Part shown: in pieces, positions 19,945 to 38,567 of the stretch
Layout of the letters: every line of letters begins with the position of its first letter
Position numbering within the stretch: the stretch's first letter is position 1
NCBI RefSeq assembly: GCF_002305855.1
Contig: NZ_CP022163.1
Span: forward strand, 7,195,765-7,259,764
From: Melittangium boletus DSM 14713
GTDB taxonomy: Bacteria > Myxococcota > Myxococcia > Myxococcales > Myxococcaceae
Reading direction: 5' to 3'
DNA length: 64,000 nucleotides
Notes under the pieces: generated by a model
What the model saw: only the letters and a program-made list of their open reading frames with translations
Database searches by the model: none
What the model was told of the DNA's origin: nothing
Made by a program: the position numbers and the translations under genes

Positions 19945-22900
19945 TCAGGACTGGATCAGCCGGTCGATCGTTTCGAGTTCAAGGGCTCTCCATAGACCCA
20001 GGCTCAGCCATTCCTTCGCGAGCAGGGCGGCGCTGTCGTCGCCTGGCTGGATGCTCAGTCGGCCTGCGAGTTCATCCCATTCGCACTCGGAGAGGGATTG
20101 GCTGGAGAGCGCACGGCGGTGCAGGGCGAGAAGACGGTCCGCGGCGGAGGCATCCGCCAACTCCGCGAGCACCGGCTCCACGAGAGAGGGATCATCGACC
20201 CGCGACAGCTTCGCCAACCCTCGCAGCCGGAGTGACAGGAAGGCCTCTCCGTTCGGACCTGGCCATCGATCCCGGTAGCCGAGCTTGGCGCCTTGTGAGG
20301 TGAAACGCGCCAACCACTGCTCGCCGAGGGTCCGTCCATCCCGGGCGAGCGCCCGCAGCATGAGTTGGGTGGAGGTGGATTTCGGCAGCCCGGGGTATTC
20401 GGACAAGGCCCGGAGGGTCCAGGGAGAGAGTTCCGCGCCATGATCGGACACGAGCCGGATCACGAGGTCCGTGATGTTTTCCGGTGTATGGCCAAGCGCC
20501 GCCATGGCCTCGAGATGGTGAGGGGCCTCGTTCAGCCAGCTGTCGTGGTGAAACGAGTGCAGTCGCTCGATGAGGATGTCGATGCGACGTGGGGCGCTCA
20601 TGTCCGCCTGTTCGAGGACCTCGAGTGCCTCCTTGATATCGACGTGGCTGGGGAGCCAGAGCACCGCGTGCTGGAGGACGCTTCGAATCGAATCGTTGGG
20701 TGGCCTCAAGGACAGCAGGGTTCGCGCTCTCCGGAGGGATTCGGAAGGATAGACATGGGCGAACGCGTACACGGCCGCCTCGACCACGGGAATGAGCCGT
20801 TCGTCGCGGCCTCCCAACTCATGAAGCAGGCACGCCGCCTCCACTTGCAGGTCGAACAGCTGCTGCCGGTGGTCCGGGTCGCTCGTGGCGGTGGTGACAT
20901 CGATGCTCAGCGCTCGACGAAGAACCTCGATGCGCTTGCCGGTGAGCCGTCTTCCCGCTTTCGCCAGCCTGTCGAATCGGAGGATGGCGTGAAGTCCCTC
21001 GGGAGGCGTCCGGTGGCGGAGTGCGGTCCGGAGCCAGCGGCGCACGGTCCTTGGCGGAGGGGTGGACGGCTCCTTCCGGGACTTGCACCAGCCCTCGATG
21101 AAGGAGAGCGCGTCTTGCCCGATCCCGTCCTCAACGTGCTCGAAGGCGAGCTCGACGGCGAACAGGATGGCGTCGCGGGTGATAGGGACGCGGTACTGAA
21201 AGAGAAACGTGAACGCCGAGCGCCTCTCGGGGTTCTGCCTCCGGATGATGGCCCATGCATCCGGGAAGCGCTGGAGCCATTGATAGAGAAACAGCTCGTC
21301 GTCATCGAACCTCGTTCGAGCTGGATTCAAACGCGCGATCACCTGCTCCGACAGGCATGGAATCTGGAGGCCGCACCCCTCCGCGAGATGGAGCAGGGCG
21401 TCCAGCTGGCTCCTGTCGATCGTCCGAAGACGGGCCGTGAGTGCCGCTTGGACCGCGTCACGCGTGTCCTCGCGCTTCGCGAGGAACCTCGCGGCGCGGC
21501 GGAAGCGTGCCTCCTCCACGTCATCGAGCCACGCGGTGAGCCGGGCAATGCCCATGCCGGGCCGATAGACACACAGCGCGTGCATCGCCTCGGCATCGAC
21601 CCGTGGTTCCTCCCATTCATGGCGGAAATCATGCAGTGCCTCGTTCCACTCCGGTCCCTGGGCGATGACCCGTGATTCATAGGACGCCCCGAGTAGGAGG
21701 TGACGCTGCGTTCTCTTGTACGGGTGGCCCGCCCGTTCGAGCGCTTCCATCAATACCGCATGGGCTTTCTCCTCCAGGAAGCCACACCGCAGCGCGACGC
21801 GTGCCGCGTCCACCCGGAGCGAGGGGTCCGTGGCCTCGAGCACGCGTGCGATCGAGGGTTGGATCCATTCCCGGGTCTCCTGGGGAAAATGAACGGCGAG
21901 TGCTTCGGCGGCCTCCAGGACGCGTTCCACGGAGCTTCCGTCGAGCGCGAGCCGCCACAGGCGGGCCGCGTCGCTCTCCGCGCCCGCGTGATGGAGGCGT
22001 CCGGCGAGCCATTCCATCTGGCCCTGGGTCAGCTCATGAGGCGACATCACCCGGCAGGCCTCGATGGCGGCGGGGACCGTCTCCTCGTTGTCGAAGCTTC
22101 CCCACAGGAGCAGTCCGTACACCTCCCGCAGGCTCGCTCCCTCTCTCGAATGGAGCGCGAGGCGCTGGCGGACCGCCTCCCGGGCGAAGGACTGCTCTCG
22201 CATCAGGCGGAAGAGCGCGTCCGTTGCCACCTCTCCCACCAGGCCTGGCCGGCCCAGTGCCTCCAGCACGTGCTCCAGGGACGAAGGCTCCGCGGTCACG
22301 AGCCTCGCGAGCGTGGACGACCAACTGATCCGGGTGAATCCGTCCCTCTCTTTCGGCTCCCTGACGGACTCCACGGGAAGTCCTCGCAGGATGGCTTGCA
22401 CGGCCGTCGAGGCGAAGGCCTTCATGCGGCTCACGGGCCAATACATGTAATCCTTCACGTGCGTGTCCGTGGCGCGCGCGGCTTCCTCCGCGTCCACGGC
22501 CACGATCCGTGCATCCACCCGGTGGTGCCGCCAGATCAGCTCGGACGCCGCCTCCCGCCGGATGGTGGACACCGGGTCCTCCAGCAATTCATACAGGACA
22601 GGCACCACGAGGTCCTTGTCCTTCGTGGGCGCCGCGGACACGAGCTTCGCCGCGGCGAGCCGGGTCTCGACGGGGAGCTCCCGGGCCCTCGCGCATTCGA
22701 GCCACCCCTCGAGCGGCTTCCATTCCAGATGGGACATGAGCCCGTGCATGTGCTCGTACACGATGCCGAGCACGTCTGGATTTCCCGAGCGCGCGCAGGA
22801 GCGCAGCGTCGCCAGTGCCTCCTGGGTGAGCTCGGGCTGGCGGCCAGCCGCGAGCCAGGCCCAATGTGCCCGGGTGGCGTCGTCCGGGGAGCGCATGCCT

Positions 22901-25446
22901 CGCCGCAGCGCCGCGTGGAGATGCGTGTCATCCGGGGTGAAACGGCGGAGCAGGCGCGCGGCGCACATCCGCCGTTCGGGCTGCCGGTCCTCCAGCCATC
23001 GGCGGAGGGTGTCGAGGAGGCCGCGCCGCTCCTCTCCCGCTTGCTCCAGCAACCGTTCCAACTCCTGACGGACCCTGGAGTCGGTCTCGGCGGTTCGCTT
23101 CAGGACTTCCTCGAGCATCCCCTCGACCAGGGGGACCACTTCCTGGACGATTCCTCGCGCGTGGGCCCCCAGCGTCGAGTCATCGACCATCCAGTCGAGG
23201 AGGGCGTCACGCACGGGTTTCGAGTCGGCGCGCAGCTTCAACACGGCCTTGGCATCCTGCTCGCGGTGCGTGCCCTTGGAGAGCGTCTGCTTCAGCACCT
23301 CGGCCACGTCGCCGTCCCACATGCCGGCCACCGCGAGCAGCAGCGCCGATGACAGTCGGAGCTCCCGCTGGGCCTCCGGCTCGGGAATGGGCGTGCGGAC
23401 GAGTTCTTGTAATTCCTTTCGCAGGGCCTCTCCCCCGCGGCGTACCCGCTCGCCCACGGCCTCCGGGTGGGGTCTCCCGTAGGCCCTGCCAAAATGGCCC
23501 AGGACCTCGATGACCTCGTGACTCCACTCCCCCGCCGAGGCGAGGCCGAATGCGCCGAGGACGCGCAACTTCGTATCCAGGCGGCGCTCCAGCCAGCCTT
23601 CGCAGAGTTTCCGCGCGGTGGGAACGTCCGCGGCCTCGGGGGCGATGAGGGAGGCGATTCCATCCCGCACGTCGCTCACGCCATGGGGCTCGATGCGGGC
23701 GAAGCGCTCCAGGAGCTCCGGGGACAGCCGTGACGTCGGCCCCTTCGTGGCGAGGCGGCCAAAGACCTCCCAGAGGGGATTGGGCGGGGTCCGCTCGAGC
23801 AGGTCGGCCCAGGTGGACCACACCCGCTCGGTGAGTTCGGGGTCGAGGCGCAGGTCGTACTCGAGGCAGTCGGACAGGTCCCTCAGACCGGGACGAAGGA
23901 ACTGGCCCGCGCCACGCTTGTCCCGATCGAGCAACCCCTGGACGAGCGCGGTGACCTCGCCCGTGGCGCCACACACATGGTCGAGGTGCGCGGCGGCGAA
24001 CTTCAAGACCCACGGGGGAAACCTTGGCTCCGCGAGGATGCGCTCCGCGGCACCGCGCTCTCCATGGCGGACGAGCGCGCGGGCGGCGAGGAACTCGGCG
24101 AAGGTCGAGTGCCAGAAGACGAAGACCCCGCCTTCTTCCTGGATGAGTCCTGTTTCGAGCGCGAGGTGGAGTGCCTTGTCCGCAGACTCCCGGGTCACCG
24201 CGCCGAGCAGGCGGATGAAGAGCGCCCGCACGCCGCCGCCGCGTTGCTCCTGACGGACCAGCGCGAGCGCGACAGCGGACCAGACGTCCATGAGCCCGTC
24301 CGCCTCCGCGCGGGTCAGCCCCAGCGCGGAACGCCACTCCCAGAGGAGCGTGCGGATGAAGTTCTCGAAGACGAAGATCTCGTGCCGGGGGATTCCCTCT
24401 TCGTTCGTGGGCGAGAGCGCCAACAGCGTGAGCAGGAGCGGGTTGCCTCCCAGCCGTTGCAGCCGCTTTCCGGGCTGGAGTTCCCTCAACAGGGCGTTCG
24501 TGCGGTGGCGGGCGCGGGCCTCGCTCCCGGCGTCCTCGTCCTCGCGTCTCTCGAGGAGCCGGTGCAGGCGGGTGACCAGGTTGCGCCGCTGCCGGGGATG
24601 GAGGGGCGCCAGCTGGGTTTGCGCGAGGCGGGGGATGCGCGGGCGGTAGCCGTTGGGCCGCGAGGTCACCAGCAGCCGCACCGTCTCATACCGCTCGAAG
24701 AACGCCGTCAACGCCTCCACGACGGGCCTGCGCTGCTCCTCCGCAACCTCGTCGAGCCCATCGCAGAGCAGGAAGAGCCTTCCGGCCTCCAGCAACTCGC
24801 CGAGCCCGGCGGCGAGCTCGGGCGCCTTCTGGGCGTGGAGCTGGTCACGGATGAGCTGGTCCATGGACAGCCCCCCGGTGGACAGCGCGCCTCCAAGTCT
24901 GCCGAGTGACAGGCGCACGGGAAGCAGCTCACTCAGGGACTGGACCGCCCCCACCGCTTGCGCATCGAACGCATCGTCATCGCACAGCAGTTGACGGGCA
25001 CGCACCGCCGCGGCTCCCTCGGTACAGGCCAGGAACGCCAGCCGGGTGAGCACGGTCTTGCCCGTCCCCGGGTCGCCGATGACGGTGAGCCGGGAGTACT
25101 TGTGGAGCGCCTTGGCGAAGGAGATGGGCTCACCCGCGTGTTCCCACCGGCCGTCCTGGAGCCGCCGGAATTCCTCCTCGAGTTTTCGCCGCTCGTCCTG
25201 GGAGAGGCGCCGGTCGTTCAACCGGTCCATCAAGGTCTCGGCGCTGGGCACCCGCTGCTTGGACTCATCGTGCAGCGAGGAGGCCACCGCGAAGTCGAGC
25301 AGATCGAGCTCCGTCTCGTGGCGGCCTCGCTCAATGCCCGCGAGACGGCTGAGGTCGAGGCGGCGGAGGCTCGGCTCCTTCGCCCACGCTTGTTTGTACT
25401 TCGCCAGCGCTTGGGACACCGCGGGGGACGGACCGGGCAAGGACAT
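19945..25446 (-). CDS. STAND NTPase (NACHT-type NB domain) with about 1350-aa C-terminal HEAT/ARM-like helical repeats, 1833 aa
   Basis: Walker A GDPGTGKT (nt 25064-25087). Walker B LFLLCDGLDEV. Sensor-1-like LLVTSRP. GxP motif GGNPLLLTLLA. Short (about 115 aa) N-terminal helical region. No recognisable nuclease, TIR or HTH. Repeated ...L..LL.D....VR..A...L pattern throughout the C-terminus. Confidence 0.85.
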   Translation of the reverse strand: MSLPGPSPAVSQALAKYKQAWAKEPSLRRLDLSRLAGIERGRHETELDLLDFAVASSLHDESKQRVPSAETLMDRLNDRRLSQDERRKLEEEFRRLQDGRWEHAGEPISFAKALHKYSRLTVIGDPGTGKTVLTRLAFLACTEGAAAVRARQLLCDDDAFDAQAVGAVQSLSELLPVRLSLGRLGGALSTGGLSMDQLIRDQLHAQKAPELAAGLGELLEAGRLFLLCDGLDEVAEEQRRPVVEALTAFFERYETVRLLVTSRPNGYRPRIPRLAQTQLAPLHPRQRRNLVTRLHRLLERREDEDAGSEARARHRTNALLRELQPGKRLQRLGGNPLLLTLLALSPTNEEGIPRHEIFVFENFIRTLLWEWRSALGLTRAEADGLMDVWSAVALALVRQEQRGGGVRALFIRLLGAVTRESADKALHLALETGLIQEEGGVFVFWHSTFAEFLAARALVRHGERGAAERILAEPRFPPWVLKFAAAHLDHVCGATGEVTALVQGLLDRDKRGAGQFLRPGLRDLSDCLEYDLRLDPELTERVWSTWADLLERTPPNPLWEVFGRLATKGPTSRLSPELLERFARIEPHGVSDVRDGIASLIAPEAADVPTARKLCEGWLERRLDTKLRVLGAFGLASAGEWSHEVIEVLGHFGRAYGRPHPEAVGERVRRGGEALRKELQELVRTPIPEPEAQRELRLSSALLLAVAGMWDGDVAEVLKQTLSKGTHREQDAKAVLKLRADSKPVRDALLDWMVDDSTLGAHARGIVQEVVPLVEGMLEEVLKRTAETDSRVRQELERLLEQAGEERRGLLDTLRRWLEDRQPERRMCAARLLRRFTPDDTHLHAALRRGMRSPDDATRAHWAWLAAGRQPELTQEALATLRSCARSGNPDVLGIVYEHMHGLMSHLEWKPLEGWLECARARELPVETRLAAAKLVSAAPTKDKDLVVPVLYELLEDPVSTIRREAASELIWRHHRVDARIVAVDAEEAARATDTHVKDYMYWPVSRMKAFASTAVQAILRGLPVESVREPKERDGFTRISWSSTLARLVTAEPSSLEHVLEALGRPGLVGEVATDALFRLMREQSFAREAVRQRLALHSREGASLREVYGLLLWGSFDNEETVPAAIEACRVMSPHELTQGQMEWLAGRLHHAGAESDAARLWRLALDGSSVERVLEAAEALAVHFPQETREWIQPSIARVLEATDPSLRVDAARVALRCGFLEEKAHAVLMEALERAGHPYKRTQRHLLLGASYESRVIAQGPEWNEALHDFRHEWEEPRVDAEAMHALCVYRPGMGIARLTAWLDDVEEARFRRAARFLAKREDTRDAVQAALTARLRTIDRSQLDALLHLAEGCGLQIPCLSEQVIARLNPARTRFDDDELFLYQWLQRFPDAWAIIRRQNPERRSAFTFLFQYRVPITRDAILFAVELAFEHVEDGIGQDALSFIEGWCKSRKEPSTPPPRTVRRWLRTALRHRTPPEGLHAILRFDRLAKAGRRLTGKRIEVLRRALSIDVTTATSDPDHRQQLFDLQVEAACLLHELGGRDERLIPVVEAAVYAFAHVYPSESLRRARTLLSLRPPNDSIRSVLQHAVLWLPSHVDIKEALEVLEQADMSAPRRIDILIERLHSFHHDSWLNEAPHHLEAMAALGHTPENITDLVIRLVSDHGAELSPWTLRALSEYPGLPKSTSTQLMLRALARDGRTLGEQWLARFTSQGAKLGYRDRWPGPNGEAFLSLRLRGLAKLSRVDDPSLVEPVLAELADASAADRLLALHRRALSSQSLSECEWDELAGRLSIQPGDDSAALLAKEWLSLGLWRALELETIDRLIQS

Positions 25447-25458
25447 CGAGTTCTCGGC

Positions 25459-27546
25459 TCAGGACAGCGTCACGTCATAGTACGGACGTATCTCGCCCGT
25501 TCGCGCGTTGGGCCACTGTGGCTCGGGACCCCAGGCTCCGCCCTGCTTGGGACGGCTTCGGACATGGACCCGGAGCCGGTGGAGTTCCCTCTCCACCTCC
25601 AACAGGTTGTACAGGCGAGGCACCGACTCGGGCCGATCCCGGTAGGGAGCCCCGAAGCTCCCCGCTCCGATGACATGCATGCTCCGCCACGGGTGGGTGG
25701 GGTCGAGGAGGTCCGCCCGAATCTCGTGGACGTGGCCGTGGAGGCAGACGCGGACGTCCGCCTGGCTCAAGCGGCTCGTGAAGGCGTCATCCTTGATCTT
25801 CTCGTTGCCGGTGATGGGGTGATGCCAGACCGCCATCCGGAGGACGTTCGACTCCCGGCCGAGTTCCCTGTCCGCGGCTCGGAGTCCCCGGGACAGGGCA
25901 CCCTCGTGGATGCTGGAGCGTTCCGTGAAGTGCTTGTCGATCTCCCACGCGGAGTTCAGGGCCAGGAATTGAATGCGCGACTCGCGGAAGAAGAACGAGA
26001 GACACTGCTCCTCGGGCGGGAGTGGATAGGCTCGCTGGAAGAGCGGCTGATAGAAGAAGTCGGAGAAGTTCTTGAACCGCTCCGCGTAGACCTGGGCGCT
26101 CCAGTCCAGGTCATGGTTGCCCGGGACGATGATGCATTGCCGGGGCGTCAGCCCGAATTCCTCGAGGAGTTCCGAGACGAACGCGCGGGCCTTCTCGAAC
26201 TCCTGGGGCGAGGCCTTCTGGGTGAGATCTCCCGAGATGACCAGATGGTCCAATCGCTCGACGCCCAGCCCCCGGGGTGGCTTGCCTCGCAGGTCCGCGG
26301 CGAGCGGCTGGAGCAGGTTGTGGGGATCCTGTCCGGCCTCGACGTGCAGGTCGCTCAGATGGAGGATCCGGATGGGAGAGTCCGGACTGGGCGGCTCGGG
26401 ACGGGTGGGGCGGGGGGCCGGTGCCTCGGGAGCGCTCGGGGACACGGAGGACGGTCGCTCCTGGAGCAGCTCGGACCAGGGGATTTCGATGGACTCGCGG
26501 TCGCCGGACAGCGTTCGGGTGTCCGGCTCCAACACGAGCGTCCCGTCCTCCGTCATGAACGTGCTTCGCGGAAAGAGCTCGAGCCGTCCTCCCATGCCGG
26601 TGAGCTGGAGCTGTCCGGCGAGATAGCCCGAGCCCGGCGCGTGCGACGACCTGGGCAGCTCGCTGAAGAGGTCACTCGCGTGCAGCGAGCGGGACCAGGG
26701 ACGCGGCGGAACACCGAGGAGCGAACCGCCCTCGGTGAGCCGGTCGCCACACAGATGCAGGAGCGGGCGTCCCGGGAAGGCGAGCCGTTCTCCCAGCTCG
26801 GTGAGGAGCGCGTCGCGCAGCTTCGACGGGGGATGGTGCGTCAGCAGCAGGAGCGCGTCATGGGGGCGCGCCCAGGCCCGGAGGTCCTGCCCCGTGGCCG
26901 CTTCCACCTGCTCCACGTCGATCTCGTTCATGCCCTCCAAGCCGTCCCGGGCCGAGCTCCGGAAGCTGGAGTTGAGCCCGATGACGCCCACCGTCACGCC
27001 CTCGGAGGCCACGGTGGCGGCGAAGTCTCCGGGAAGCAGCCCCGGGCGGAAGGAGGTGAGCTGGGAGGACGGGTGCATGTGCCGCCAGGTGCTGAACCAG
27101 TCGTTGAAGGCCGCGAACCCCTTCCAGACGGTCCGCTCCACCTGGCCCGGGCTCTCCGCCCGGAAGGCCTTTCGTGCTTCCAGGGCCCGGTAGCGGCTTC
27201 CCAGATCCGGGAGCCGGGGGTTCGGGTCCCGCCGGATGTCATGGTCGCCGGGCACCACGAGCAGGCATGGCTCCGAGCCCAGCTCGCGCAGGAGCGTCCA
27301 CAGGGAGTCCAGCGCGGAGTTCAGCAGCTCGAATTCACGGGGACTGCCCGTCAGCGTGAGGTCGCCCGAGATGAGGACCAGACTCCACGGACCCGCGCGC
27401 GCATGGAGCCCGCGCAGGTCCTGATGGAGGGCTTCCCTGTACTCGGGTTGCAGCAGCCGTGAGCCATGGATGCCCAGGTGAAGATCCGACAGGTGCAGCC
27501 ATCCGAGTCGAGCCACCGTTCCCCCAGCGCGCGCGGAGGCCAGCAT
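25459..27546 (-). CDS. Tandem calcineurin-like metallophosphoesterase (two CpdA/Mre11-type MPP domains), 695 aa
   Basis: Domain 1: LHLSDLHLG, ISGDLTLTG, VPGDHD, LLLTHHPP, with the final GHxH motif replaced by CGDR (degenerate). Domain 2: LHLSDLHV, ISGDLTQKA, VPGNHD, AVWHHP, CLHGHVHE (complete motif set). The stop lies 12 nt before the STAND gene start. Confidence 0.85.
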   Translation of the reverse strand: MLASARAGGTVARLGWLHLSDLHLGIHGSRLLQPEYREALHQDLRGLHARAGPWSLVLISGDLTLTGSPREFELLNSALDSLWTLLRELGSEPCLLVVPGDHDIRRDPNPRLPDLGSRYRALEARKAFRAESPGQVERTVWKGFAAFNDWFSTWRHMHPSSQLTSFRPGLLPGDFAATVASEGVTVGVIGLNSSFRSSARDGLEGMNEIDVEQVEAATGQDLRAWARPHDALLLLTHHPPSKLRDALLTELGERLAFPGRPLLHLCGDRLTEGGSLLGVPPRPWSRSLHASDLFSELPRSSHAPGSGYLAGQLQLTGMGGRLELFPRSTFMTEDGTLVLEPDTRTLSGDRESIEIPWSELLQERPSSVSPSAPEAPAPRPTRPEPPSPDSPIRILHLSDLHVEAGQDPHNLLQPLAADLRGKPPRGLGVERLDHLVISGDLTQKASPQEFEKARAFVSELLEEFGLTPRQCIIVPGNHDLDWSAQVYAERFKNFSDFFYQPLFQRAYPLPPEEQCLSFFFRESRIQFLALNSAWEIDKHFTERSSIHEGALSRGLRAADRELGRESNVLRMAVWHHPITGNEKIKDDAFTSRLSQADVRVCLHGHVHEIRADLLDPTHPWRSMHVIGAGSFGAPYRDRPESVPRLYNLLEVERELHRLRVHVRSRPKQGGAWGPEPQWPNARTGEIRPYYDVTLS

Positions 27547-27577
27547 AGCAGGCGGCGGATTCCTCCCGACGAGGACC

Positions 27578-27947
27578 TCAGACGTTGAGGGACTGGAGCA
27601 GCAGCGAGAGCTGATCCCGGCTGGCGCCCTTGGGCAGGTAGTAGTGCGGCCCGGAGCGGAGCGCGCCGCCCACGTCCTGCACCGCCGCGGCCGTCAACAG
27701 CACCACGCGGGGCGGATCTCCTCGCGGCATCCGCTCCAGGACCTCGAGGCCGTTCATCCCGGGCATGTTCAGATCCAGGAGCATCACGCCGTAGCGCTGC
27801 CGCGCCAGCGAGTCGAGGGCCTCCTGACCATTGGCCGCTTCGATGGCTTCGTAACCGAGCTCTTCCAGGCACAAGCGAAGGAACTCCCGCCAATCTGCGT
27901 CGTCGTCGACGACCAGTACTTTGCGCGCGTCATCCGCGGAAGCCATT
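27578..27947 (-). CDS. Stand-alone CheY-like receiver (REC) domain protein
   Basis: VLVVDDD acidic pocket, phospho-acceptor Asp in MLLDLNMPGMNG, conserved T/S and Lys (LPKG). Start taken at the ATG at 27947. The track's 27955 start is TTG. Lies 31 nt upstream of the tandem MPP gene. Confidence 0.75.
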
Positions 27948-28052
27948 GATTCCAATCGTCCTCCCCGTACCAGTGGGAAAACTCATCGAGCATGGCCGAA
28001 CATTCTCCGGCGCCTGCTCGACTGGCCGGTTTCCAGGGGAGTGAGCGGGCCG

Positions 28053-28886
28053 CTAGAGCAGGGCGGCGGACAACTGCGAGGCCAGGTACTGCAGCGCGGG
28101 CATGACGTTGGGCGCCGAGCGCTGGCGCGTGGGCGGCAGGTGGGCCTGGCGCCAGACGGGCTCGCCCGTGAGGCGGCCGGCGGCGTGCGAGAAGACGCGG
28201 AATCGGCCCAGCTCGACGGAGCTGCCCGAGTTGTAGATGCGCAGTGAGCGTCCCCGGGGGTGGCCCAGGTCGAACTCGCGCGGCACGTGCCGGTGCCCGT
28301 GCAGGATGAGATCGCACCGGCCCTGGATGCGCTGGACCAGCTCGGCGCCCAGGGCGAGCTCCGAGGCGTGGGGCCAGCCCATTCGCGTCGCCAGCCGCTC
28401 GGGGAAGCTCTCCTCGGGGAGGGGCAGCACGTGGTGGTGCAGGAGGATCGCGGTGAGCGCGCCCAGGGGCGCGGCGCTCAGGGCGCTGTCCACGGCGTCC
28501 AGGACGGCGGGGGTCAGCACGCCGTGGCAGGCGAAGTAGTTGCGGTTGTGGGGACCCGTGGAGTCCACGCACACCAGGTACAGGCCCTCGTGGTGCTCCA
28601 CCCGGACCTTCTGGCCGTTCATCCACCGGCCGCCCGCGTCCTCGCCCGTGCGATCGTGGTTGCCGGGGACGAAGGTGAGCCGTCCGGTGTCGAGCAGCGG
28701 CGCGAAGATTTCCCGGAAGCGCCGGTACTCGCGCTGGCTGCCTTGGTGGGTCAGGTCGCCCGTCACCACCACGTGGTCCACGCGGCCGGAGAGCAGGCTC
28801 TCGACGAGCGCGCGGGCGGTGGTGTCACTGCCGGGGGTCAGGTCCAGGTGCAGGTCCGACAGGTGCGCCAGGGTTCTCAGGTGCAT
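28053..28886 (-). CDS. Metallophosphoesterase (CpdA/PlcP-like), about 278 aa
   Basis: Complete motif set LAHLSDLHLD, VTGDLTHQG, VPGNHD, LLHHHVLP, LHGHRHVP. Start placed at the internal ATG (MHLRTLAHLSDLHL) at 28886 rather than the track's 29177, which would overlap the upstream glycosyltransferase gene. Confidence 0.7.
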   Translation of the reverse strand: MHLRTLAHLSDLHLDLTPGSDTTARALVESLLSGRVDHVVVTGDLTHQGSQREYRRFREIFAPLLDTGRLTFVPGNHDRTGEDAGGRWMNGQKVRVEHHEGLYLVCVDSTGPHNRNYFACHGVLTPAVLDAVDSALSAAPLGALTAILLHHHVLPLPEESFPERLATRMGWPHASELALGAELVQRIQGRCDLILHGHRHVPREFDLGHPRGRSLRIYNSGSSVELGRFRVFSHAAGRLTGEPVWRQAHLPPTRQRSAPNVMPALQYLASQLSAALL

Positions 28887-28972
28887 GGTGCTCGAGTACC
28901 CCGGGGCTGAAACACCCCCGTGGCCCTCGGGTGAAGCTTCCGGGAGGAGCCGGTGACTTCGCGGTGAAGCGC

Positions 28973-30271
28973 TCAGCCCGCGAGCAGTTCCGCCGCGCGC
29001 TGGGGCTCGGGGAGCGCCGGGGACAGGGGCCGCTCCGGAGAGGGCGTCACGAGCCGCGAGCCCGCCATCACGCGCAGCGAATGGCCGCGCCAGTTCACCG
29101 AGCGGACCACCAGCCCGTGGGCCCAGGCCACGAAGAGCAGCGCGTCCTTGAGCAGCACCGCGGGCAGCGTCATCCACGGCGTCTTCTGCCCGGGCCGCAT
29201 GATGCGGAAGACGATCACATCATGGAGTCCCTTCACCACGGCCACCCCGCCCGCCATCGCGAGGGTCGGCGTCGAGGGCGACAGGGCCGCGCTCAGCAGG
29301 GCCCACGGCAGCGGGTTGAGGATGGACTGCGCCAGGTACAGCGGCGTGGGGATGCAGGAGTGGTGGATGATGCTCCAGCGCACGTAGCGCTGGAAGAAGG
29401 TCCGGACGCTCTTCTTCTGGGACACGTTGTAGACGGGCGAGCGGGCCACCACGGCCCGCTGGCCGCTGTAGCGCCTCATCCACTGGCCGATGACGAAGTC
29501 CTCCGCGAGCACGTTGCGGACCGAGTAGAAGCCGTCCAGCGCTTCCACCGCCTCGCGGCGCAGCGCCATGGACTTGCCCACCACGATGTCCTGGCCCGCG
29601 GCCCGCTTGGCGGCGATCTGTCCCGCGGCCGCCGTGGAGCACAGGTACAGGTTGTCCATCAGCGAGCCGAGCGACTGCTCGCCCACGCCGCTCACCGGGT
29701 GGGACACACAGCCCACGGAGGGATCCTCGAAGGCGCGGGAGATCTCCTCCAGGTAGCCGGGCCCCACGCGGGTGTTGGAGTCGCTGATGAGCAGGAGGTC
29801 GTAGCGCGCCGCGGCCGCCAGGGTGATGAGCTGGTTCACCTTGGGGTTGAGGCCGGGCTCGCCGTGCTGCATCTCCAGCTTCATCACATCGGGCCAGCGC
29901 GCCACGGCCGCCAGGGCCACGGGGTAGGCGGGATCGCGCGTGTCCTTCACCCCGAGGATCACCTCATAGGCGGGATGGCCGAGCGTGGCGAAGCACTCGA
30001 GGTTGGCCTCCAGGTCATCGTCCACGCCGCACAGGGGCTTGAGGATGGAGATGCCCGACAGCCGCTCCGTGGGCCCGGTGCCGGTGACGGGCTCCGAGGT
30101 GTCCCAGCGGTGGCGCAACACGCAGAAGAGCTGGACGCAGAGGGCGAGGGTTCCGAGGGCGGCCGCCGAGAGGAGGGCGAGGCTGAGCGCGTGAGCGGTG
30201 AACACGGATGTTCTCCTGGACTGACGGGCGCGGGGAGCGCGCGTCCTGTCCAGGGACGCTACGGACCACAT
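28973..30271 (-). CDS. Family-2 glycosyltransferase (ceramide glucosyltransferase / Pgt-Agt-HpnI-like), membrane
   Basis: N-terminal transmembrane helix. ISILKPLCGVDDDLEANLE and LISDSNTRV (DxD-type GT-A motifs). Hydrophobic C-terminal half. ATG at 30271, 65 nt after phoU. Confidence 0.75.
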   Translation of the reverse strand: MWSVASLDRTRAPRARQSRRTSVFTAHALSLALLSAAALGTLALCVQLFCVLRHRWDTSEPVTGTGPTERLSGISILKPLCGVDDDLEANLECFATLGHPAYEVILGVKDTRDPAYPVALAAVARWPDVMKLEMQHGEPGLNPKVNQLITLAAAARYDLLLISDSNTRVGPGYLEEISRAFEDPSVGCVSHPVSGVGEQSLGSLMDNLYLCSTAAAGQIAAKRAAGQDIVVGKSMALRREAVEALDGFYSVRNVLAEDFVIGQWMRRYSGQRAVVARSPVYNVSQKKSVRTFFQRYVRWSIIHHSCIPTPLYLAQSILNPLPWALLSAALSPSTPTLAMAGGVAVVKGLHDVIVFRIMRPGQKTPWMTLPAVLLKDALLFVAWAHGLVVRSVNWRGHSLRVMAGSRLVTPSPERPLSPALPEPQRAAELLAG

Positions 30272-34728: not shown

Positions 34729-35418
34729 TCAGGCCTCTCCTGGCTCGACGAGGCGGTAGCCGACCCCTCGTACCGTCTCCAGATAGGCCCGGGCGGAGCC
34801 GAGCTTGTCGCGCAGGCGCATGATGTGCGTGTCGATGGTGCGCGTCTCCAGGTGGCTGGACAGCCCCCACACCTCCTCGAGCAACAGCTCTCGCGACTGC
34901 ACCCGGCCCATGCGCGATAACAGGTGCTCGAGGAGCTTGAACTCGAGCGCGGTGAGCACCACCTCCTTGCCGTCCACGAAGAAGCGGTGGGAGGAGGTGT
35001 CGAGCAGCAGGGGGCCGAGCCGGAGCGCGACGGACTCCTCCCGGCTCGAGCCTCCCCGGCGCAGGATGGCCTTGAGCCGCAGGACGAGCTCCCGGACGCT
35101 GAAGGGCTTGGTGACGTAGTCGTCGGCCCCCACCTCGAAGCCCCGCACCCGGTCCGTCTCCTCGCCCTTGGCGGTGAGCATGACGACGAGCACATCCCGC
35201 GTGGGCGGGGTGGTGCGCAGTTGGCGGCACACGTCCACGCCGGACATGTCCGGCAACATCACGTCCAGGAGGACGACATCCGTGGGCTGCTCGCGGGCGG
35301 CCGACAGCGCGGCCTCTCCCGTGGACGCGACCCGGGTGGAGAAGCCGGCGGCGCGCAGATTGAAGTCGATGAGCTCGGCGAGGTCCTGCTCATCATCGAC
35401 GATGAGGATGTGGGGCAT
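34729..35418 (-). CDS. OmpR/PhoB-family response regulator (orphan, Pho-associated)
   Basis: REC domain (ILIVDDEQD, LLDVMLPDMSG) plus winged-helix output (VRGVGYRL). Start at the ATG at 35418 (MPHILIV...). Confidence 0.85.
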   Translation of the reverse strand: MPHILIVDDEQDLAELIDFNLRAAGFSTRVASTGEAALSAAREQPTDVVLLDVMLPDMSGVDVCRQLRTTPPTRDVLVVMLTAKGEETDRVRGFEVGADDYVTKPFSVRELVLRLKAILRRGGSSREESVALRLGPLLLDTSSHRFFVDGKEVVLTALEFKLLEHLLSRMGRVQSRELLLEEVWGLSSHLETRTIDTHIMRLRDKLGSARAYLETVRGVGYRLVEPGEA

Positions 35419-35465
35419 GACGGTGGCCCACTCTGGGCCGCACCGTTCGCGGTGCCGTGGCACCC

Positions 35466-35485
35466 GTGCGACAAGTTCGTGACAT
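35466..35485 (-). promoter_or_regulatory. Candidate Pho box (direct repeat TGTCAC-N5-TGTCGC, 11-bp periodicity)
   Basis: On the gene strand: aTGTCACgaactTGTCGCac, 48-67 nt upstream of the response-regulator ATG. Resembles the E. coli PhoB consensus CTGTCAT-N4-CTGTCAT. Confidence 0.35.
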
Positions 35486-35493
35486 CGACCCGG

Positions 35494-36438
35494 CTAGCCG
35501 TCGAGATCCTGTGCCACGGCCAGGGGAAGCGGCTCCTCGTCGATGGGCAGGGGCGCTCCCTCCTCGGAGTCGGCCGAGCGCAGGGCCGCGGGGTCCACCG
35601 CGGGCAATTCGATCGGCGTGGGCCGGTGGGGGAGGTTGGAGCCGGGGGGCGGGCGCAGCACCGGACCGGGCGGCGGCAGCCCCGAGTGGCGGCGCGCGGC
35701 CTCCATCAACGCCTTGTGGTGGCGGTAGCGCGCCTCCACGAGCTTGTGGATGAGGAGCGGACCCCCGGGCACGCGGCGCGCGGTGAGCGCCTGGGTGGCC
35801 TTGCGCACCGGATAGCGCACCCGGCGGATCTGCACGCGCCAGCCCCGGGGCGTGAAGGTGAAGACGCCGTAGGCGGGGCGCAGGTCTCCGTCCCGGGGGA
35901 TGCCGGCGCTGGCCACGTCGGCGATCAGCAGCCGGCCCACGCGGCGGCGGTAGGGGAAGTGCAGGTGGCCGAACGCCACCGCGGCCGCGTCCAGGTTCTG
36001 GAAGTAGCGGCGCACGGTGTTCTCGTCCAGCGTGGGGTCCAGCGAGTCCTCGAGGTTGCGCGGGTTGGCGTGGCAGACGAAGAGGTCCTGCCCGCGGCGA
36101 GGCGAGTAGCGCGTGGAGAAGGGCATGGAGCCCAGGCGCTTGAGCCACGCCTCCCCGAGTTGATCCCGGGACCACTGCAACAGCTCCGTCTTCCAGTGGT
36201 CGCGCTCGCGGTAGGCGCCCCCCAGGTAGTTACCGGCGAGGTAGCAGTCGGTGTTGCCCATGATGAGGGCGTGACAGCGATCGAAGAGCAGCTCCACCGT
36301 TTCGCGCGGGTGCGCGCCGCGCAGGGCGAGATCGCCGGCGGCCACGATGTAGTCGGGCGCGACACGGGCGATGTCCTCGAGGACCGCCTCGCAGGCAGGG
36401 AGGTTGCCGTGTATGTCGGCGAGGATTGCGACCCGCAT
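35494..36438 (-). CDS. Metallophosphoesterase (YfcE/ApaH-like), 314 aa
   Basis: VAILADIHGN, AAGDLALRG, IMGNTD, AFGHLHFP. Lies between phoR and the orphan response regulator. Confidence 0.8.
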   Translation of the reverse strand: MRVAILADIHGNLPACEAVLEDIARVAPDYIVAAGDLALRGAHPRETVELLFDRCHALIMGNTDCYLAGNYLGGAYRERDHWKTELLQWSRDQLGEAWLKRLGSMPFSTRYSPRRGQDLFVCHANPRNLEDSLDPTLDENTVRRYFQNLDAAAVAFGHLHFPYRRRVGRLLIADVASAGIPRDGDLRPAYGVFTFTPRGWRVQIRRVRYPVRKATQALTARRVPGGPLLIHKLVEARYRHHKALMEAARRHSGLPPPGPVLRPPPGSNLPHRPTPIELPAVDPAALRSADSEEGAPLPIDEEPLPLAVAQDLDG

Positions 36439-36450
36439 GGATGCCGCATC

Positions 36451-37824
36451 CTAACCCGCGGATGCATCCGAGGGCACCGCCGCTGGAAGTAAAATCGTAA
36501 AGGTAGAGCCCTCGTTCGGTTGGCTTTCGACCCGGACCTCGCCCCCCATGGCGCCGAGCAGGTGCTTGACGATGGACAGGCCCAGGCCCGTGCCCCCCAT
36601 GTCCCGGCTGCGGCCCTTGTCCACCCGGTAGAAGCGCTCGAAGATGCGCGCCAGGTGCCTCGCCTCGATGCCGACCCCGCTGTCGCTCACGTGCACCACG
36701 CAGCGCCCGTCCTCCTGCCCGCCCGTCACCGTCACCCGGCCTCCCTCGGGCGTGTACTTCACCGCGTTGTCCAGGAGGTTGAGCAGCACCTGCTCCAGCC
36801 CTCGCTCGTCGCCCCGGGCCTGGAGATCCGGGGGAACATTCAATTCCAGGGAAATGCGTTTGCCCTGGGCCTTGTGCCGGACCGCCTCGGCCGCCCGGGA
36901 GGCCGCCACCGCGAGCGGCACGTCCTGGAGCCTGAGCTTCACTTCGCGTGACTCCAACCGGGACAGCTCGAGCAGATCCTCGACGAGCTCCGACAGCCGC
37001 TCGGATTGACGGTGGATGATGTCCACCATCTTCGTCGCGACCTGGGGGTTGGCCAGGGCCCCGGACTGGAGGGTTTCCGCGTAGCCGCGGATGGCGGTGA
37101 TGGGGGTGCGCAGCTCGTGGGAGACGTTGGCGACGAAGTCCTTGCGCACCTTCTCCAGGTGGCGCAGCTCGGTGACGTCGTGGAAGACGGCGGCGCTGCC
37201 GGGCAGGTCTCCGCCCAGCGGCGTCACCCGGATGGCGAGCGTGCGCGACAGCACGTCATCCAGCGTCAGCTCCAGGCGGGTGGAGGCGCCCTCGTGGCAG
37301 GCCCGGTGCACGGCCTCGTTGAGCGAGCCATGGCGCAGCAGCGTCAGCGGACGCTGGCCGATGATGTCCCCGGTGGACAGGAGCATGCCGCGCAGCGCGT
37401 CGTTGTGGCGCACCACGGTGCCCTCGACGTCCGTCACCCAGATGCCCTCGGCCATGCCGTCCAGCACGGCGGTGAGGGTGCGTGCTTCCTGGAGGTGGCC
37501 GGCGTTGAGCGTGGCGTGCCGCTGGTGCAGTGCGTCGAGGGTGCGCTGGAGGAGCGCCACCTCCTCGAGCTCCTCCTCGTCGGGAGGGGGCGAGGGCGTG
37601 GTGGCGGGGGCGGGGACTTCCTCGGGGCGGGTGAGCGCCCGCTGGGCGAGTTCGGAGAGGCGCCGCTGGAGCAGGCCGCGCGCCGCCACCAGCGTCAGCC
37701 CGGAGCCGAGCAGGGTGGAGAGCGAGACATAGACGGCGTCCATGTTCCAGCCCAGCAGCAGGAACAGCACGAGCGCCACCAGGGCCGGAGCCAGCAGCGC
37801 GAGCAGGTAGGGGCGCGGAGGCAT
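36451..37824 (-). CDS. phoR: Phosphate-sensing histidine kinase PhoR
   Basis: N-terminal transmembrane helix, PAS-like region, H-box HELRTPITAIRGYAETL, then N/G1/G2 boxes (LLDNAVKYT, DSGVGI, GGTGLGLSIV). Start 1 nt after the phoB stop. Confidence 0.85.
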   Translation of the reverse strand: MPPRPYLLALLAPALVALVLFLLLGWNMDAVYVSLSTLLGSGLTLVAARGLLQRRLSELAQRALTRPEEVPAPATTPSPPPDEEELEEVALLQRTLDALHQRHATLNAGHLQEARTLTAVLDGMAEGIWVTDVEGTVVRHNDALRGMLLSTGDIIGQRPLTLLRHGSLNEAVHRACHEGASTRLELTLDDVLSRTLAIRVTPLGGDLPGSAAVFHDVTELRHLEKVRKDFVANVSHELRTPITAIRGYAETLQSGALANPQVATKMVDIIHRQSERLSELVEDLLELSRLESREVKLRLQDVPLAVAASRAAEAVRHKAQGKRISLELNVPPDLQARGDERGLEQVLLNLLDNAVKYTPEGGRVTVTGGQEDGRCVVHVSDSGVGIEARHLARIFERFYRVDKGRSRDMGGTGLGLSIVKHLLGAMGGEVRVESQPNEGSTFTILLPAAVPSDASAG

Positions 37825-37825
37825 T

Positions 37826-38509
37826 TCAGGGAGGGGTGAGTTTGTAGCCCACGCCGCGCACCGTCTCGATGATGTCGCCCGCGGGGCCGAGCTTCTCGCG
37901 CAGGCGCTTGATGTGCGTGTCCACCGTGCGCGTGTGGATCTCCGCCTGGATGCCCCACACGTCCGAGAGCAGCACCTCGCGCGTCTGCACGCGCTCGGTG
38001 CGCTCCATCAACGTGCGCAGCAGCCGGAACTCCAGCGCGGTCAGGGCCACCTCCTGGCCCCTGGCGCGCACCTGGTGCCGCGTGGTGTCGAGCTGGATGT
38101 CCCCGGCGGACAGCTGCGCGGGCTCTCCCTCCTCCAGGTCCGAGCGCCGCAGCACGGCCTTGACCCGCAGGAGCAGCTCGCGCACGGAGAAGGGCTTCAC
38201 CACGTAGTCATCCGCGCCCAGCTCCAGGCCCTGGATGCGATCGGACTCCTGGCCCTTGGCGCTGACGATGATGACCGGCACCTTGCGCAGCTCGGTGTCG
38301 CTCTTGAACAGGCGCAGCACCTCGCTGCCCGCGAGGTCCGGCAACATCAAATCCAGCAGCAACAGGTCCGGCAGGTTCGCGCGCGCCCGGGCCAGGCCGC
38401 TCGCGCCCGAGCCCACCGCTTCCGCCTCGAACCCCGCGGCCCGCAGGTTGTACTCCACCAGTCCGGCCAGATCCTGCTCGTCCTCGATGATCAGGATGCG
38501 TGCCATCAT
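37826..38509 (-). CDS. phoB: Phosphate regulon response regulator PhoB-like
   Basis: REC (ILIIEDEQD, LLDLMLPDLAG) plus winged-helix (TVRGVGYKL). Tandem ATG ATG start. The second ATG (38506) has better RBS spacing to GGGAGGA. Confidence 0.85.
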   Translation of the reverse strand: MMARILIIEDEQDLAGLVEYNLRAAGFEAEAVGSGASGLARARANLPDLLLLDLMLPDLAGSEVLRLFKSDTELRKVPVIIVSAKGQESDRIQGLELGADDYVVKPFSVRELLLRVKAVLRRSDLEEGEPAQLSAGDIQLDTTRHQVRARGQEVALTALEFRLLRTLMERTERVQTREVLLSDVWGIQAEIHTRTVDTHIKRLREKLGPAGDIIETVRGVGYKLTPP

Positions 38510-38567
38510 TCCTCCCGGCTTCCAGCTTTCACCCCGCCTGGACTAGCAGAGACGCCGTGTCGGCTGA

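Follow-up and report, generated by a model that had tools for sequence, protein, structure and literature searches.

The design closest to the one considered here is DS-8, an experimentally validated anti-phage system of Escherichia coli in which a metallophosphoesterase (MPP) and a NACHT NTPase form a single protein, and in which defence requires both the catalytic residues of the MPP and the NTPase residue of the NACHT module (PMC13092281). Calcineurin-like phosphoesterases are also among the effectors, and HEAT repeats among the sensors, of the bacterial NACHT proteins (bNACHTs) described by Kibby et al. (10.1101/2022.07.19.500537), and in the PUA-Cal-HAD system the enzyme Calcineurin-CE converts dADP to dAMP, cleaves NAD+ and collapses the deoxynucleoside triphosphate (dNTP) pool (bioRxiv 10.64898/2026.01.15.699771). 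STAND NTPases standing beside separate effectors have been described in Myxococcota and cyanobacteria (Kaur et al. 2020, 2021). Here we analyse a stretch of 64,000 nucleotides (nt) from Melittangium boletus DSM 14713 (NZ_CP022163.1, 7,195,765-7,259,764, forward strand), referred to below as the window, in which a gene for a protein with two MPP domains (MPP695) directly precedes a gene for a giant NACHT-HEAT protein of the STAND class. On balance we favour, with moderate confidence, the reading that these two genes form a conflict system resembling NOD-like receptors (NLRs), most likely one of anti-phage abortive infection with a trans-encoded, nucleotide-targeting effector.

The preliminary description of this DNA had presented three co-directional genes, the two above and a receiver gene, separated by gaps of 31 nt (receiver to MPP) and 12 nt (MPP to NACHT), as a single cassette. 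The open reading frame (ORF) calls agree with that layout, all three genes lying on the minus strand, and the features used in what follows are these:

27578-27955, minus strand: single-domain receiver (REC), 125 amino acids from a TTG start or 122 from the ATG at 27946
27566/27567, strandless: synteny breakpoint, the upstream edge of the variable region, where similarity to contigs L089-L091 ends
25459-27546, minus strand: tandem metallophosphoesterase protein (MPP695), 695 amino acids, putative trans-encoded effector
26497-27516, minus strand: N-terminal degenerate MPP domain (residues ~11-350), with motif loss in the alignment
25462-26379, minus strand: C-terminal intact MPP domain (residues ~390-695), Calcineurin-CE-like, all motifs present
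25447-25458, minus strand: MPP-NACHT junction of 12 nt, purine-rich, GCCGAGAACTCG, with GGAG in orthologues
19945-25446, minus strand: NACHT-HEAT STAND NTPase, 1833 amino acids, no fused effector and no helix-turn-helix (HTH)
25116-25446, minus strand: pre-NACHT helical region (residues 1-110), homologous to the post-effector linker of paralogues
24067-25095, minus strand: NTPase module (residues ~118-460) with Walker A (25054-25077), Walker B (24745-24777), GNPLLLTL and a winged-helix region
19948-24015, minus strand: HEAT/ARM-like alpha-solenoid (residues ~478-1833), the presumed sensor, from the structural model and weak Pfam HEAT matches
19933-19905, minus strand: promoter-like TTCACA-17 nt-TATAAA, in the 129-nt spacer between the NACHT stop and the start of the polyketide synthase (PKS) gene

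The NCBI annotation gives MPP695 a length of 685 amino acids, from a GTG at 27516, ten codons downstream of the start used here.

The MPP and NACHT genes are a two-gene unit, which is found again, and without REC, in two contexts unrelated to this one. MPP695 is 100% identical to M. boletus P0001 and has only two further full-length homologues, P0002 (67%) and P0003 (62%); the NACHT protein is 100% identical to a M. boletus 'NACHT domain-containing protein' (P0121), and the only homologues that share its want of an N-terminal extension are P0122 (59%) and P0123 (57%). In L002 and L003, P0002 is directly followed by an NACHT orthologue of 1860 amino acids, with a divergent esterase gene upstream and an Lnb_N gene downstream. 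In L088 a tandem MPP (63% identity) directly precedes P0122, while in L001 P0123 begins at the contig end, its upstream side cut off, and cysS and ffh lie downstream. A tandem MPP gene therefore stands directly upstream of all three effector-less NACHT genes that can be evaluated (window, L002/L003 and L088), each time among unrelated neighbours and, in the orthologous pairs, with neither PKS nor pst genes nearby; the separately encoded enzymatic partner proposed at the outset does co-occur with its STAND protein elsewhere. The junction itself is shared by the window, L002 and L088, where ...YYDV(T/P)L(S/P) and the stop are followed by 12 nt with GAG or GGAG and then the start codon. Since this arrangement is kept in three lineages, the split is ancestral to the clade and no product of sequencing error, and translation of the two genes is probably coupled.

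A related tandem MPP in L084 (9998-17619) is split by two DDE transposase genes and a WD40 gene, its halves showing 53% (N-type) and 58% (C-type) identity, and no NACHT gene was found within 10 kb of it. A metagenome scan with the NACHT alignment recovered a single family member besides 79 NACHT loci of only 21-31% identity; an MPP695-like neighbour was absent from all of them, although the patterns used were too generic for the result to serve as a census of the split clade.

The larger protein of the pair is recognised by Pfam as a NACHT protein (PF05729, 35 bits against a cut-off of 26.7), with further matches to NPHP3_N and weak ones to HEAT. Its three signature motifs, GDPGTGKT (Walker A, residues 124-131), LFLLCDGLDEV (Walker B, 224-234) and GNPLLLTLLA (333-342), are all present as first reported, and G124, G127, G129, K130, D229, D232, E233 and N335-L341 are invariant among the 34 homologues of alignment A2. 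Pfam and NCBIfam searches (E <= 0.1) revealed no HTH, LuxR or other DNA-binding output, including the C-terminal LuxR-type HTH of LAL/MalT-type regulators; Pfam found no fused effector either, and no extension precedes the pre-NACHT region. The protein thus has the NTPase module with Walker A/B and the GxP/winged-helix part, as well as the C-terminal superstructure-forming repeats (residues 478-1200), of the NACHT clade, and is without the effector in the same polypeptide that is usual for bNACHTs outside clade 14. An AlphaFold model covering residues 1-1200 (mean pLDDT 85, a per-residue confidence score) predicts that a helical N-terminal region precedes an alpha/beta NTPase, to which helical and winged-helix elements are joined (~118-460), and that residues 478 to 1200 consist of paired helices throughout (pLDDT ~85-90). 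In Foldseek comparisons the NTPase resembles NLRP9, NLRP3 and NLRC4, and the repeats resemble CAND1, PP2A PR65/A and karyopherins; a PDB sequence search with the protein gave no match. As far as it was modelled, the 1833-residue protein is confirmed as a predicted NACHT plus HEAT-like solenoid, so that the ~1350 residues of HEAT/ARM-like repeats initially claimed stand for the stretch 478-1200 only. Identity to the orthologues is lower in the solenoid (48-58%) than in the NTPase (67-73%), and the last third of the gene (19945-21500, minus strand), which is the least conserved part (48-55%), also has a GC content at third codon positions (GC3) of ~0.80, compared with ~0.88 in the NTPase part.

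Thirty-three myxobacterial homologues align with the NACHT protein over its whole length at 38-59% identity, making a family of 34 full-length proteins from Myxococcota genomes and metagenome assemblies. All but three of them (31/34) carry 150-350 additional N-terminal residues, at 38-49% identity over the whole query, with Archangium, Corallococcus, Pyxidicoccus and Hyalangium as the named sources, and the clade of the window is the only one in the family without a fused N-terminal effector. A Pfam scan of six of these extensions, chosen as representatives of each length class, identified Metallophos (P0124, P0125), TIR (~150 amino acids), a PNP_UDP phosphorylase (~340 amino acids) and CHAT (P0139), and in the ~231-residue class a Lon_C-like match in one of the two representatives scanned (P0154, with P0142 giving none). 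In BLASTP, residue 5 of the window protein lies opposite residue 367 of the MPP-fused P0124; the window protein is therefore the family body minus its effector. A single sensor body with swappable TIR, PNP, protease and phosphoesterase heads is a pattern typical of immune or conflict STAND proteins, as described by Kibby et al. (10.1101/2022.07.19.500537) and Kaur et al. (PMC8195603), and the MPP, TIR, PNP, CHAT and Lon-like effectors fused to its paralogues bear out the bNACHT/Avs-type logic that had been proposed for the locus.

Some neighbourhoods of the paralogues are informative in their own right. Both the MPP-fused P0124 and the PNP-fused P0127 adjoin a DsbA-family gene, and in L085 (10001-17923) and L087 (10001-17872) a small reverse-strand gene and this DsbA-family gene lie directly downstream of the MPP-fused and the PNP-fused NACHT paralogue; this common neighbourhood suggests effector replacement at one chromosomal locus across species. 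A member of the Lon-like class adjoins an Mrr_cat gene, and a TIR member adjoins a second TIR gene. In Corallococcus caeni (L172, 5441-14291) the paralogue P0142 is preceded by an overlapping gene for 497 amino acids and a DUF8426/Mrr_cat nuclease gene and followed by genes for 791 and 131 amino acids, a neighbourhood that may represent a larger multi-gene system.

Pfam Metallophos matches MPP695 in two stretches (77 bits), in keeping with the two calcineurin-like domains of the preliminary description, but only the C-terminal one is intact. It retains all of the metal-binding motifs (SDLH, SGD, GNHD, HHP and GHVH), corresponding to the pattern of an active, two-metal MPP (DxH, GD, GNH(D/E), H, GHxH), and D399/H401, G439/D440, G476-N-H-D479, H575/H576 and G604-H-x-H607 are invariant in the 34 homologues of alignment A1. 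It is modelled with pLDDT >90, and its fold resembles those of YydB, Rv0805, GpdQ and acid sphingomyelinase (ASMase)/SMPDL3A, and less closely that of Mre11. The N-terminal domain keeps SDLH, SGD and HHP (motifs I, II and IV), but has GDHD in place of GNHD (motif III) and CGDRL in place of GHxH (motif V/VI), the latter site reading CGSRH, CGGRH or CSSQH in orthologues. A dedicated search gathered 22 clusters of this N-type domain, in which the nearest members show scattered loss of motifs III-V and the remote ones are intact. Judging by its motifs, the N-terminal domain is a probable pseudo-enzyme or adaptor. A 47-nt direct repeat within the gene (D2; 26194-26240 and 27328-27374, 74% identity) reflects, at the DNA level, the duplication of the ISGDLT...EFE region in the two domains.

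The N-terminal domain has 28% identity over 242 residues to the fused MPP of P0124, and the fused paralogue MPP, which is single and intact, reaches 25-31% with either domain of the window protein. The C-terminal domain has 50-60% identity to domains fused elsewhere to a Ras-like GTPase with WD40 repeats, to a Ser/Thr kinase with PNP, and to TIR, NACHT, caspase, CHAT and EAD domains. Its best family-level match is the NCBIfam model NF053862 (DS9_1 anti-phage phosphoesterase), at 140.6 bits (E 7e-41) over profile positions 194-482 of 486, which take in all of its phosphoesterase part, a score above that of the generic Pfam Metallophos model (77 bits) and below the equivalog cut-off of 420 bits. 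On the model NF053861 (DS8 anti-phage protein), whose cut-off is 790, the same domain scores 77.2 bits, the match being confined to profile positions 1-89, and the NACHT protein gives no match to that model. Remote relatives of the N-type domain that are active are encoded on their own, next to STAND NTPases (L176, L175). The L176 locus (926-11848), a compact cluster of conflict type, comprises two caspase (Peptidase_C14) genes, a 597-residue MPP, an EAD2-bearing STAND NTPase with an overlapping start, an AAA_35 ATPase and a CHAT/TPR protein, while L175 has the gene order MPP, NB-ARC/WD40, GT4-conflict.

Set beside the described systems, the pair shares with DS-8 the combination of MPP effector and NACHT NTPase; the residues essential in DS-8 are intact in it, and its C-terminal MPP matches the start of the DS8 model. 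DS-8, however, is one polypeptide of ~1000 amino acids, whereas here the effector is a separate protein with an additional degenerate MPP, and the NACHT protein differs in its length and very long HEAT solenoid. With the bNACHTs it shares the NACHT module, C-terminal HEAT superstructure repeats of the 'antigen receptor type' and effectors that vary between close relatives, a calcineurin-like phosphoesterase being listed among the N-terminal ones; yet in bNACHTs the effector is fused, bNACHT01 working as a single gene, and none of the tested bNACHTs is closely related to the protein of the window, which has no PADLOC match. The likeness to PUA-Cal-HAD and DS-9 lies in the DS9_1 match of the active MPP and in the depletion of nucleotides by this enzyme class in that system, but the PUA sensor domain is missing (profile positions 1-193 are unmatched), no neighbouring gene in the window encodes a HAD domain that could be the partner, and the sensor is a NACHT-HEAT protein. 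The systems of Kaur et al. likewise have a STAND NTPase beside separate effectors, and MPP domains of both the N-type and the C-type are found in such contexts (EAD domains occur in the relatives P0092, P0101, P0111, P0112 and P0219 and in the L176 NTPase). Finally, the fused paralogues (MPP-NACHT P0124/P0125, PNP-NACHT P0127, TIR-NACHT P0126) have the same pre-NACHT region, NTPase and solenoid, but hold their effector covalently, and their MPP is single, unlike the tandem protein of the window. The pair therefore appears to work like NLR-related defence proteins of the bNACHT/DS-8 type while falling, by score thresholds, outside the DS-8, DS-9 and PADLOC families. The earlier view that its partner set is undescribed was half right, as MPP-NACHT proteins are validated (DS-8, PMC13092281) and calcineurin effectors listed (10.1101/2022.07.19.500537); what is new is an effector-less NACHT-HEAT sensor with a conserved, trans-encoded protein joining a probable pseudo-MPP to an active MPP, in a family with at least five effector types.

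In the mechanism that we propose for the pair, the solenoid would first recognise a trigger, whether a protein of the phage or a guarded state of the host. The NACHT protein would then oligomerise with ATP and recruit or cluster the tandem MPP, perhaps with the inactive N-terminal domain as a docking or regulatory partner; MPPs of the Rv0805/GpdQ type form dimers. In this way the dinuclear-metal phosphoesterase at the C-terminus would become active. The activated domain would destroy nucleotides (dNDP/dNTP, NAD+ or a nucleotide signal), halting replication of the invader or killing the cell; nucleic-acid cleavage is less likely than nucleotide degradation because the similarity to Mre11/SbcD is weaker. 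Several observations weigh against such a conflict system. The physical interaction of NACHT protein and MPP, the trigger and the substrate are all things that we infer, and the N-terminal MPP is modelled with low confidence. The NCBIfam scores of 140 and 77 fall far short of their equivalog cut-offs (420 and 790, respectively), PADLOC-DB assigns the STAND protein to no defence model (only mad8 at chance level, E 0.052), and the locus, between the Pho regulon and the PKS cluster, is no recognisable defence island. Pfam detects no EAD (PF199xx) or Death-like adaptor on MPP695 or the NACHT protein, although highly divergent ones may escape such detection, so that the coupling principle either differs from that of EAD systems or is hidden. 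Sequence alone does not separate phage defence from social conflict or developmental cell death.

One genome per species was scanned with the neighbouring PhoU protein, which gave 80 loci, and these were then searched by tblastn. REC was found at the same position in 51 of them, at 72-90% identity; none of the 51 carries MPP695, the NACHT protein or a PKS, and 47 extend at least 3 kb past REC. The order phoU, GT21 glycosyltransferase, 374-residue MPP, REC is kept in Archangium, Vitiosangium, Myxococcus, Pyxidicoccus, Corallococcus, Hyalangium and Citreicoccus, and in more distant Myxococcaceae phoU is directly followed by REC. Exact look-up of the 122-residue REC protein found it in three metagenome contigs, L089, L090 and L091, all of them without the pair, while the PhoU protein had no identical record. 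L089 and L090 match the window from 37952 to 27567 with 95.1% DNA identity, and L091 ends there as well, 11 nt beyond the REC stop; nothing further on matches, and these contigs continue with a convergent cupin/JmjC gene, a CmcI-like methyltransferase gene and others. In Archangium-type genomes the gene after REC has a product starting ...ILLLILANGIFAGAELAL, which we take to be a DUF21/CorC-type transporter. Synteny thus breaks at the site after REC (~13460-13560 in L004-L016, 10380 in L089), where at least three states occur: a gene for this putative DUF21/CorC-type membrane protein (Archangium, Myxococcus, Corallococcus); convergent cupin/JmjC, CmcI and lactamase_B genes (the contigs 95% identical in DNA); and MPP-NACHT with PKS, found in the window genome only. 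Since REC is conserved in phoU loci without the pair, and the pair occurs without REC in L002/L003, REC is no part of the module; it belongs to the core of the pst-phoU-GT21-MPP locus and is flanking context here, a bystander that is at most a source of read-through transcription. A TGCTAT motif after the REC stop was considered as a retained promoter and rejected, as it also occurs in the Archangium REC-corC spacer and is too short to be told from chance.

The same comparison argues strongly against the pair being a core feature of this locus. It is absent there from all relatives examined, namely the 47 informative related loci and the contigs 95% identical in DNA, and we therefore regard it as an acquired or variable module, as had been supposed. 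The two arguments offered earlier for acquisition fared less well. The lower GC of the genes is real but modest (GC3 of 0.84 and 0.86, against 0.90 +/- 0.03 for other genes), and as evidence of transfer it is too weak, because the core REC gene is equally low (0.83). The AT-rich, promoter-like element that follows the NACHT gene is indeed present, 90 nt upstream of the PKS ATG (19815), but it belongs to the PKS gene and marks no mobility boundary; a consensus scan missed it because position 6 of its -10 hexamer is A. Nor was any mobility signature found: no tRNA or repeats flank the pair, no insertion sequence (IS) element or integrase lies between REC and the PKS gene, and phage, viral and plasmid records hold no close relative of either gene, the sole viral match being a partial one of 25% identity to the MPP in an unannotated faecal phage record. 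At its other end the variable region extends beyond the PKS genes and out of the window.

One rival explanation is that all three genes were acquired together as a phospho-regulated cassette, in which phosphorylation of REC controls the phosphoesterase and the STAND protein. The genes are co-directional, no terminator is predicted in the 31-nt gap between REC and MPP, the receiver (84.5 bits with Pfam Response_reg) has the conserved acidic pocket, Thr and Lys, and certain conflict systems are described as having stand-alone receivers (PMC8195603). However, the 51 REC-bearing loci without the pair, the contigs with an identical REC that lose similarity to the window just past its stop, and the pair in L002/L003 with a divergent esterase in place of REC have largely refuted this explanation, and we give it hardly any weight. 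Equally remote, in our estimation, is a STAND regulator of the adjacent cluster of polyketide synthase and non-ribosomal peptide synthetase genes (of LAL/MalT kind) or a phosphate sensor, with the MPP as a metabolic phosphatase of the Pho regulon. The position between the Pho locus and a PKS gene whose promoter-like element follows directly on the NACHT stop would fit, as would the other MPP genes of the Pho locus, yet MPP695 is only distantly related to these (MPP374 and MPP318), the NACHT protein has no DNA-binding domain, orthologous pairs are found away from PKS and pst genes, and TIR, CHAT and PNP effectors on the paralogues would make no sense in a pathway regulator.

A decaying remnant, in which an ancestral fused MPP-NACHT protein broke apart, lost one MPP active site and left a non-functional pair, would account for the degenerate N-terminal MPP, which is more decayed in the window (GDHD, CGDRL) than in orthologues, for the related tandem MPP broken by IS elements in L084 and for the lower GC3 in the last third of the NACHT gene. 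It is nonetheless improbable, since both ORFs are intact (695 and 1833 codons), the split, the 12-nt junction and the NTPase and C-terminal MPP motifs are kept in three lineages that are 59-67% identical, and the NTPase residues are invariant across the family. Harder to set aside, though still unlikely in our view, is the same machine in another role, that of an NLR-like switch for cell death or kin discrimination which responds to an endogenous or competitor signal rather than to phage, and serves developmental lysis or non-self recognition in myxobacterial social life. Such a role would suit a NACHT family that is restricted to Myxococcota and diversified in its effectors, a locus outside any defence island and genes whose only viral relative is the distant faecal phage match; moreover, Kaur et al. 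tie such NTPase systems to multicellular prokaryotes (PMC7159879, PMC8195603). On the other hand, all bacterial NACHT and MPP-NACHT proteins tested to date are anti-phage, presence that varies among near-identical genomes is typical of defence genes, and some of the NACHT paralogues adjoin Mrr-like nuclease or TIR genes. We continue to prefer an NLR-like conflict system directed most likely against phage.

The conserved side of the breakpoint offers observations of its own. Directly downstream of phoU in most Cystobacterineae (window 28053-30271, minus strand; L004-L045) lie a GT21-family glycosyltransferase gene and an MPP gene of ~277-374 residues, which presumably resemble the PlcP/Agt pair of phosphate-starvation lipid remodelling. 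The 374-residue MPP call overlaps GT21 by ~200 nt, and its start is probably near 28886, because relatives align from residue ~95 and the L089 annotation has 277 amino acids. Upstream of pstSCAB (window 34729-38542, minus strand) there are two OmpR-type response regulators, a PAS histidine kinase and a 318-residue MPP, an arrangement that is the same in L089 and suggests a PhoR/PhoP-like module that has a phosphoesterase to itself. For genome scans in general, the locus carries a lesson, as short intergenic gaps alone drew a conserved Pho-locus receiver wrongly into a 'cassette'.

The pair is a natural split of the just-validated MPP-NACHT design of DS-8, so that purification and assay of the effector need not involve the giant sensor, and its built-in pseudo-enzyme domain is a handle on how NACHT assembly activates a dinuclear-metal phosphoesterase. 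A bolder possibility, which we raise only tentatively, is that the pair represents a two-component NLR design in its own right, a 'sensor NLR plus trans-acting, pseudoenzyme-regulated executor', in which the pseudo-MPP would tether and gate an active nucleotide-degrading enzyme of the Calcineurin-CE type on an effector-less NACHT-HEAT sensor, taking the place of an EAD or Death-like adaptor, and whose triggers might arise in the social life of myxobacteria rather than from phage. With one sensor body and at least five effector types, the family represents a compact effector-swap system in social, developmentally complex bacteria, a setting in which NLR-like proteins have scarcely been studied.

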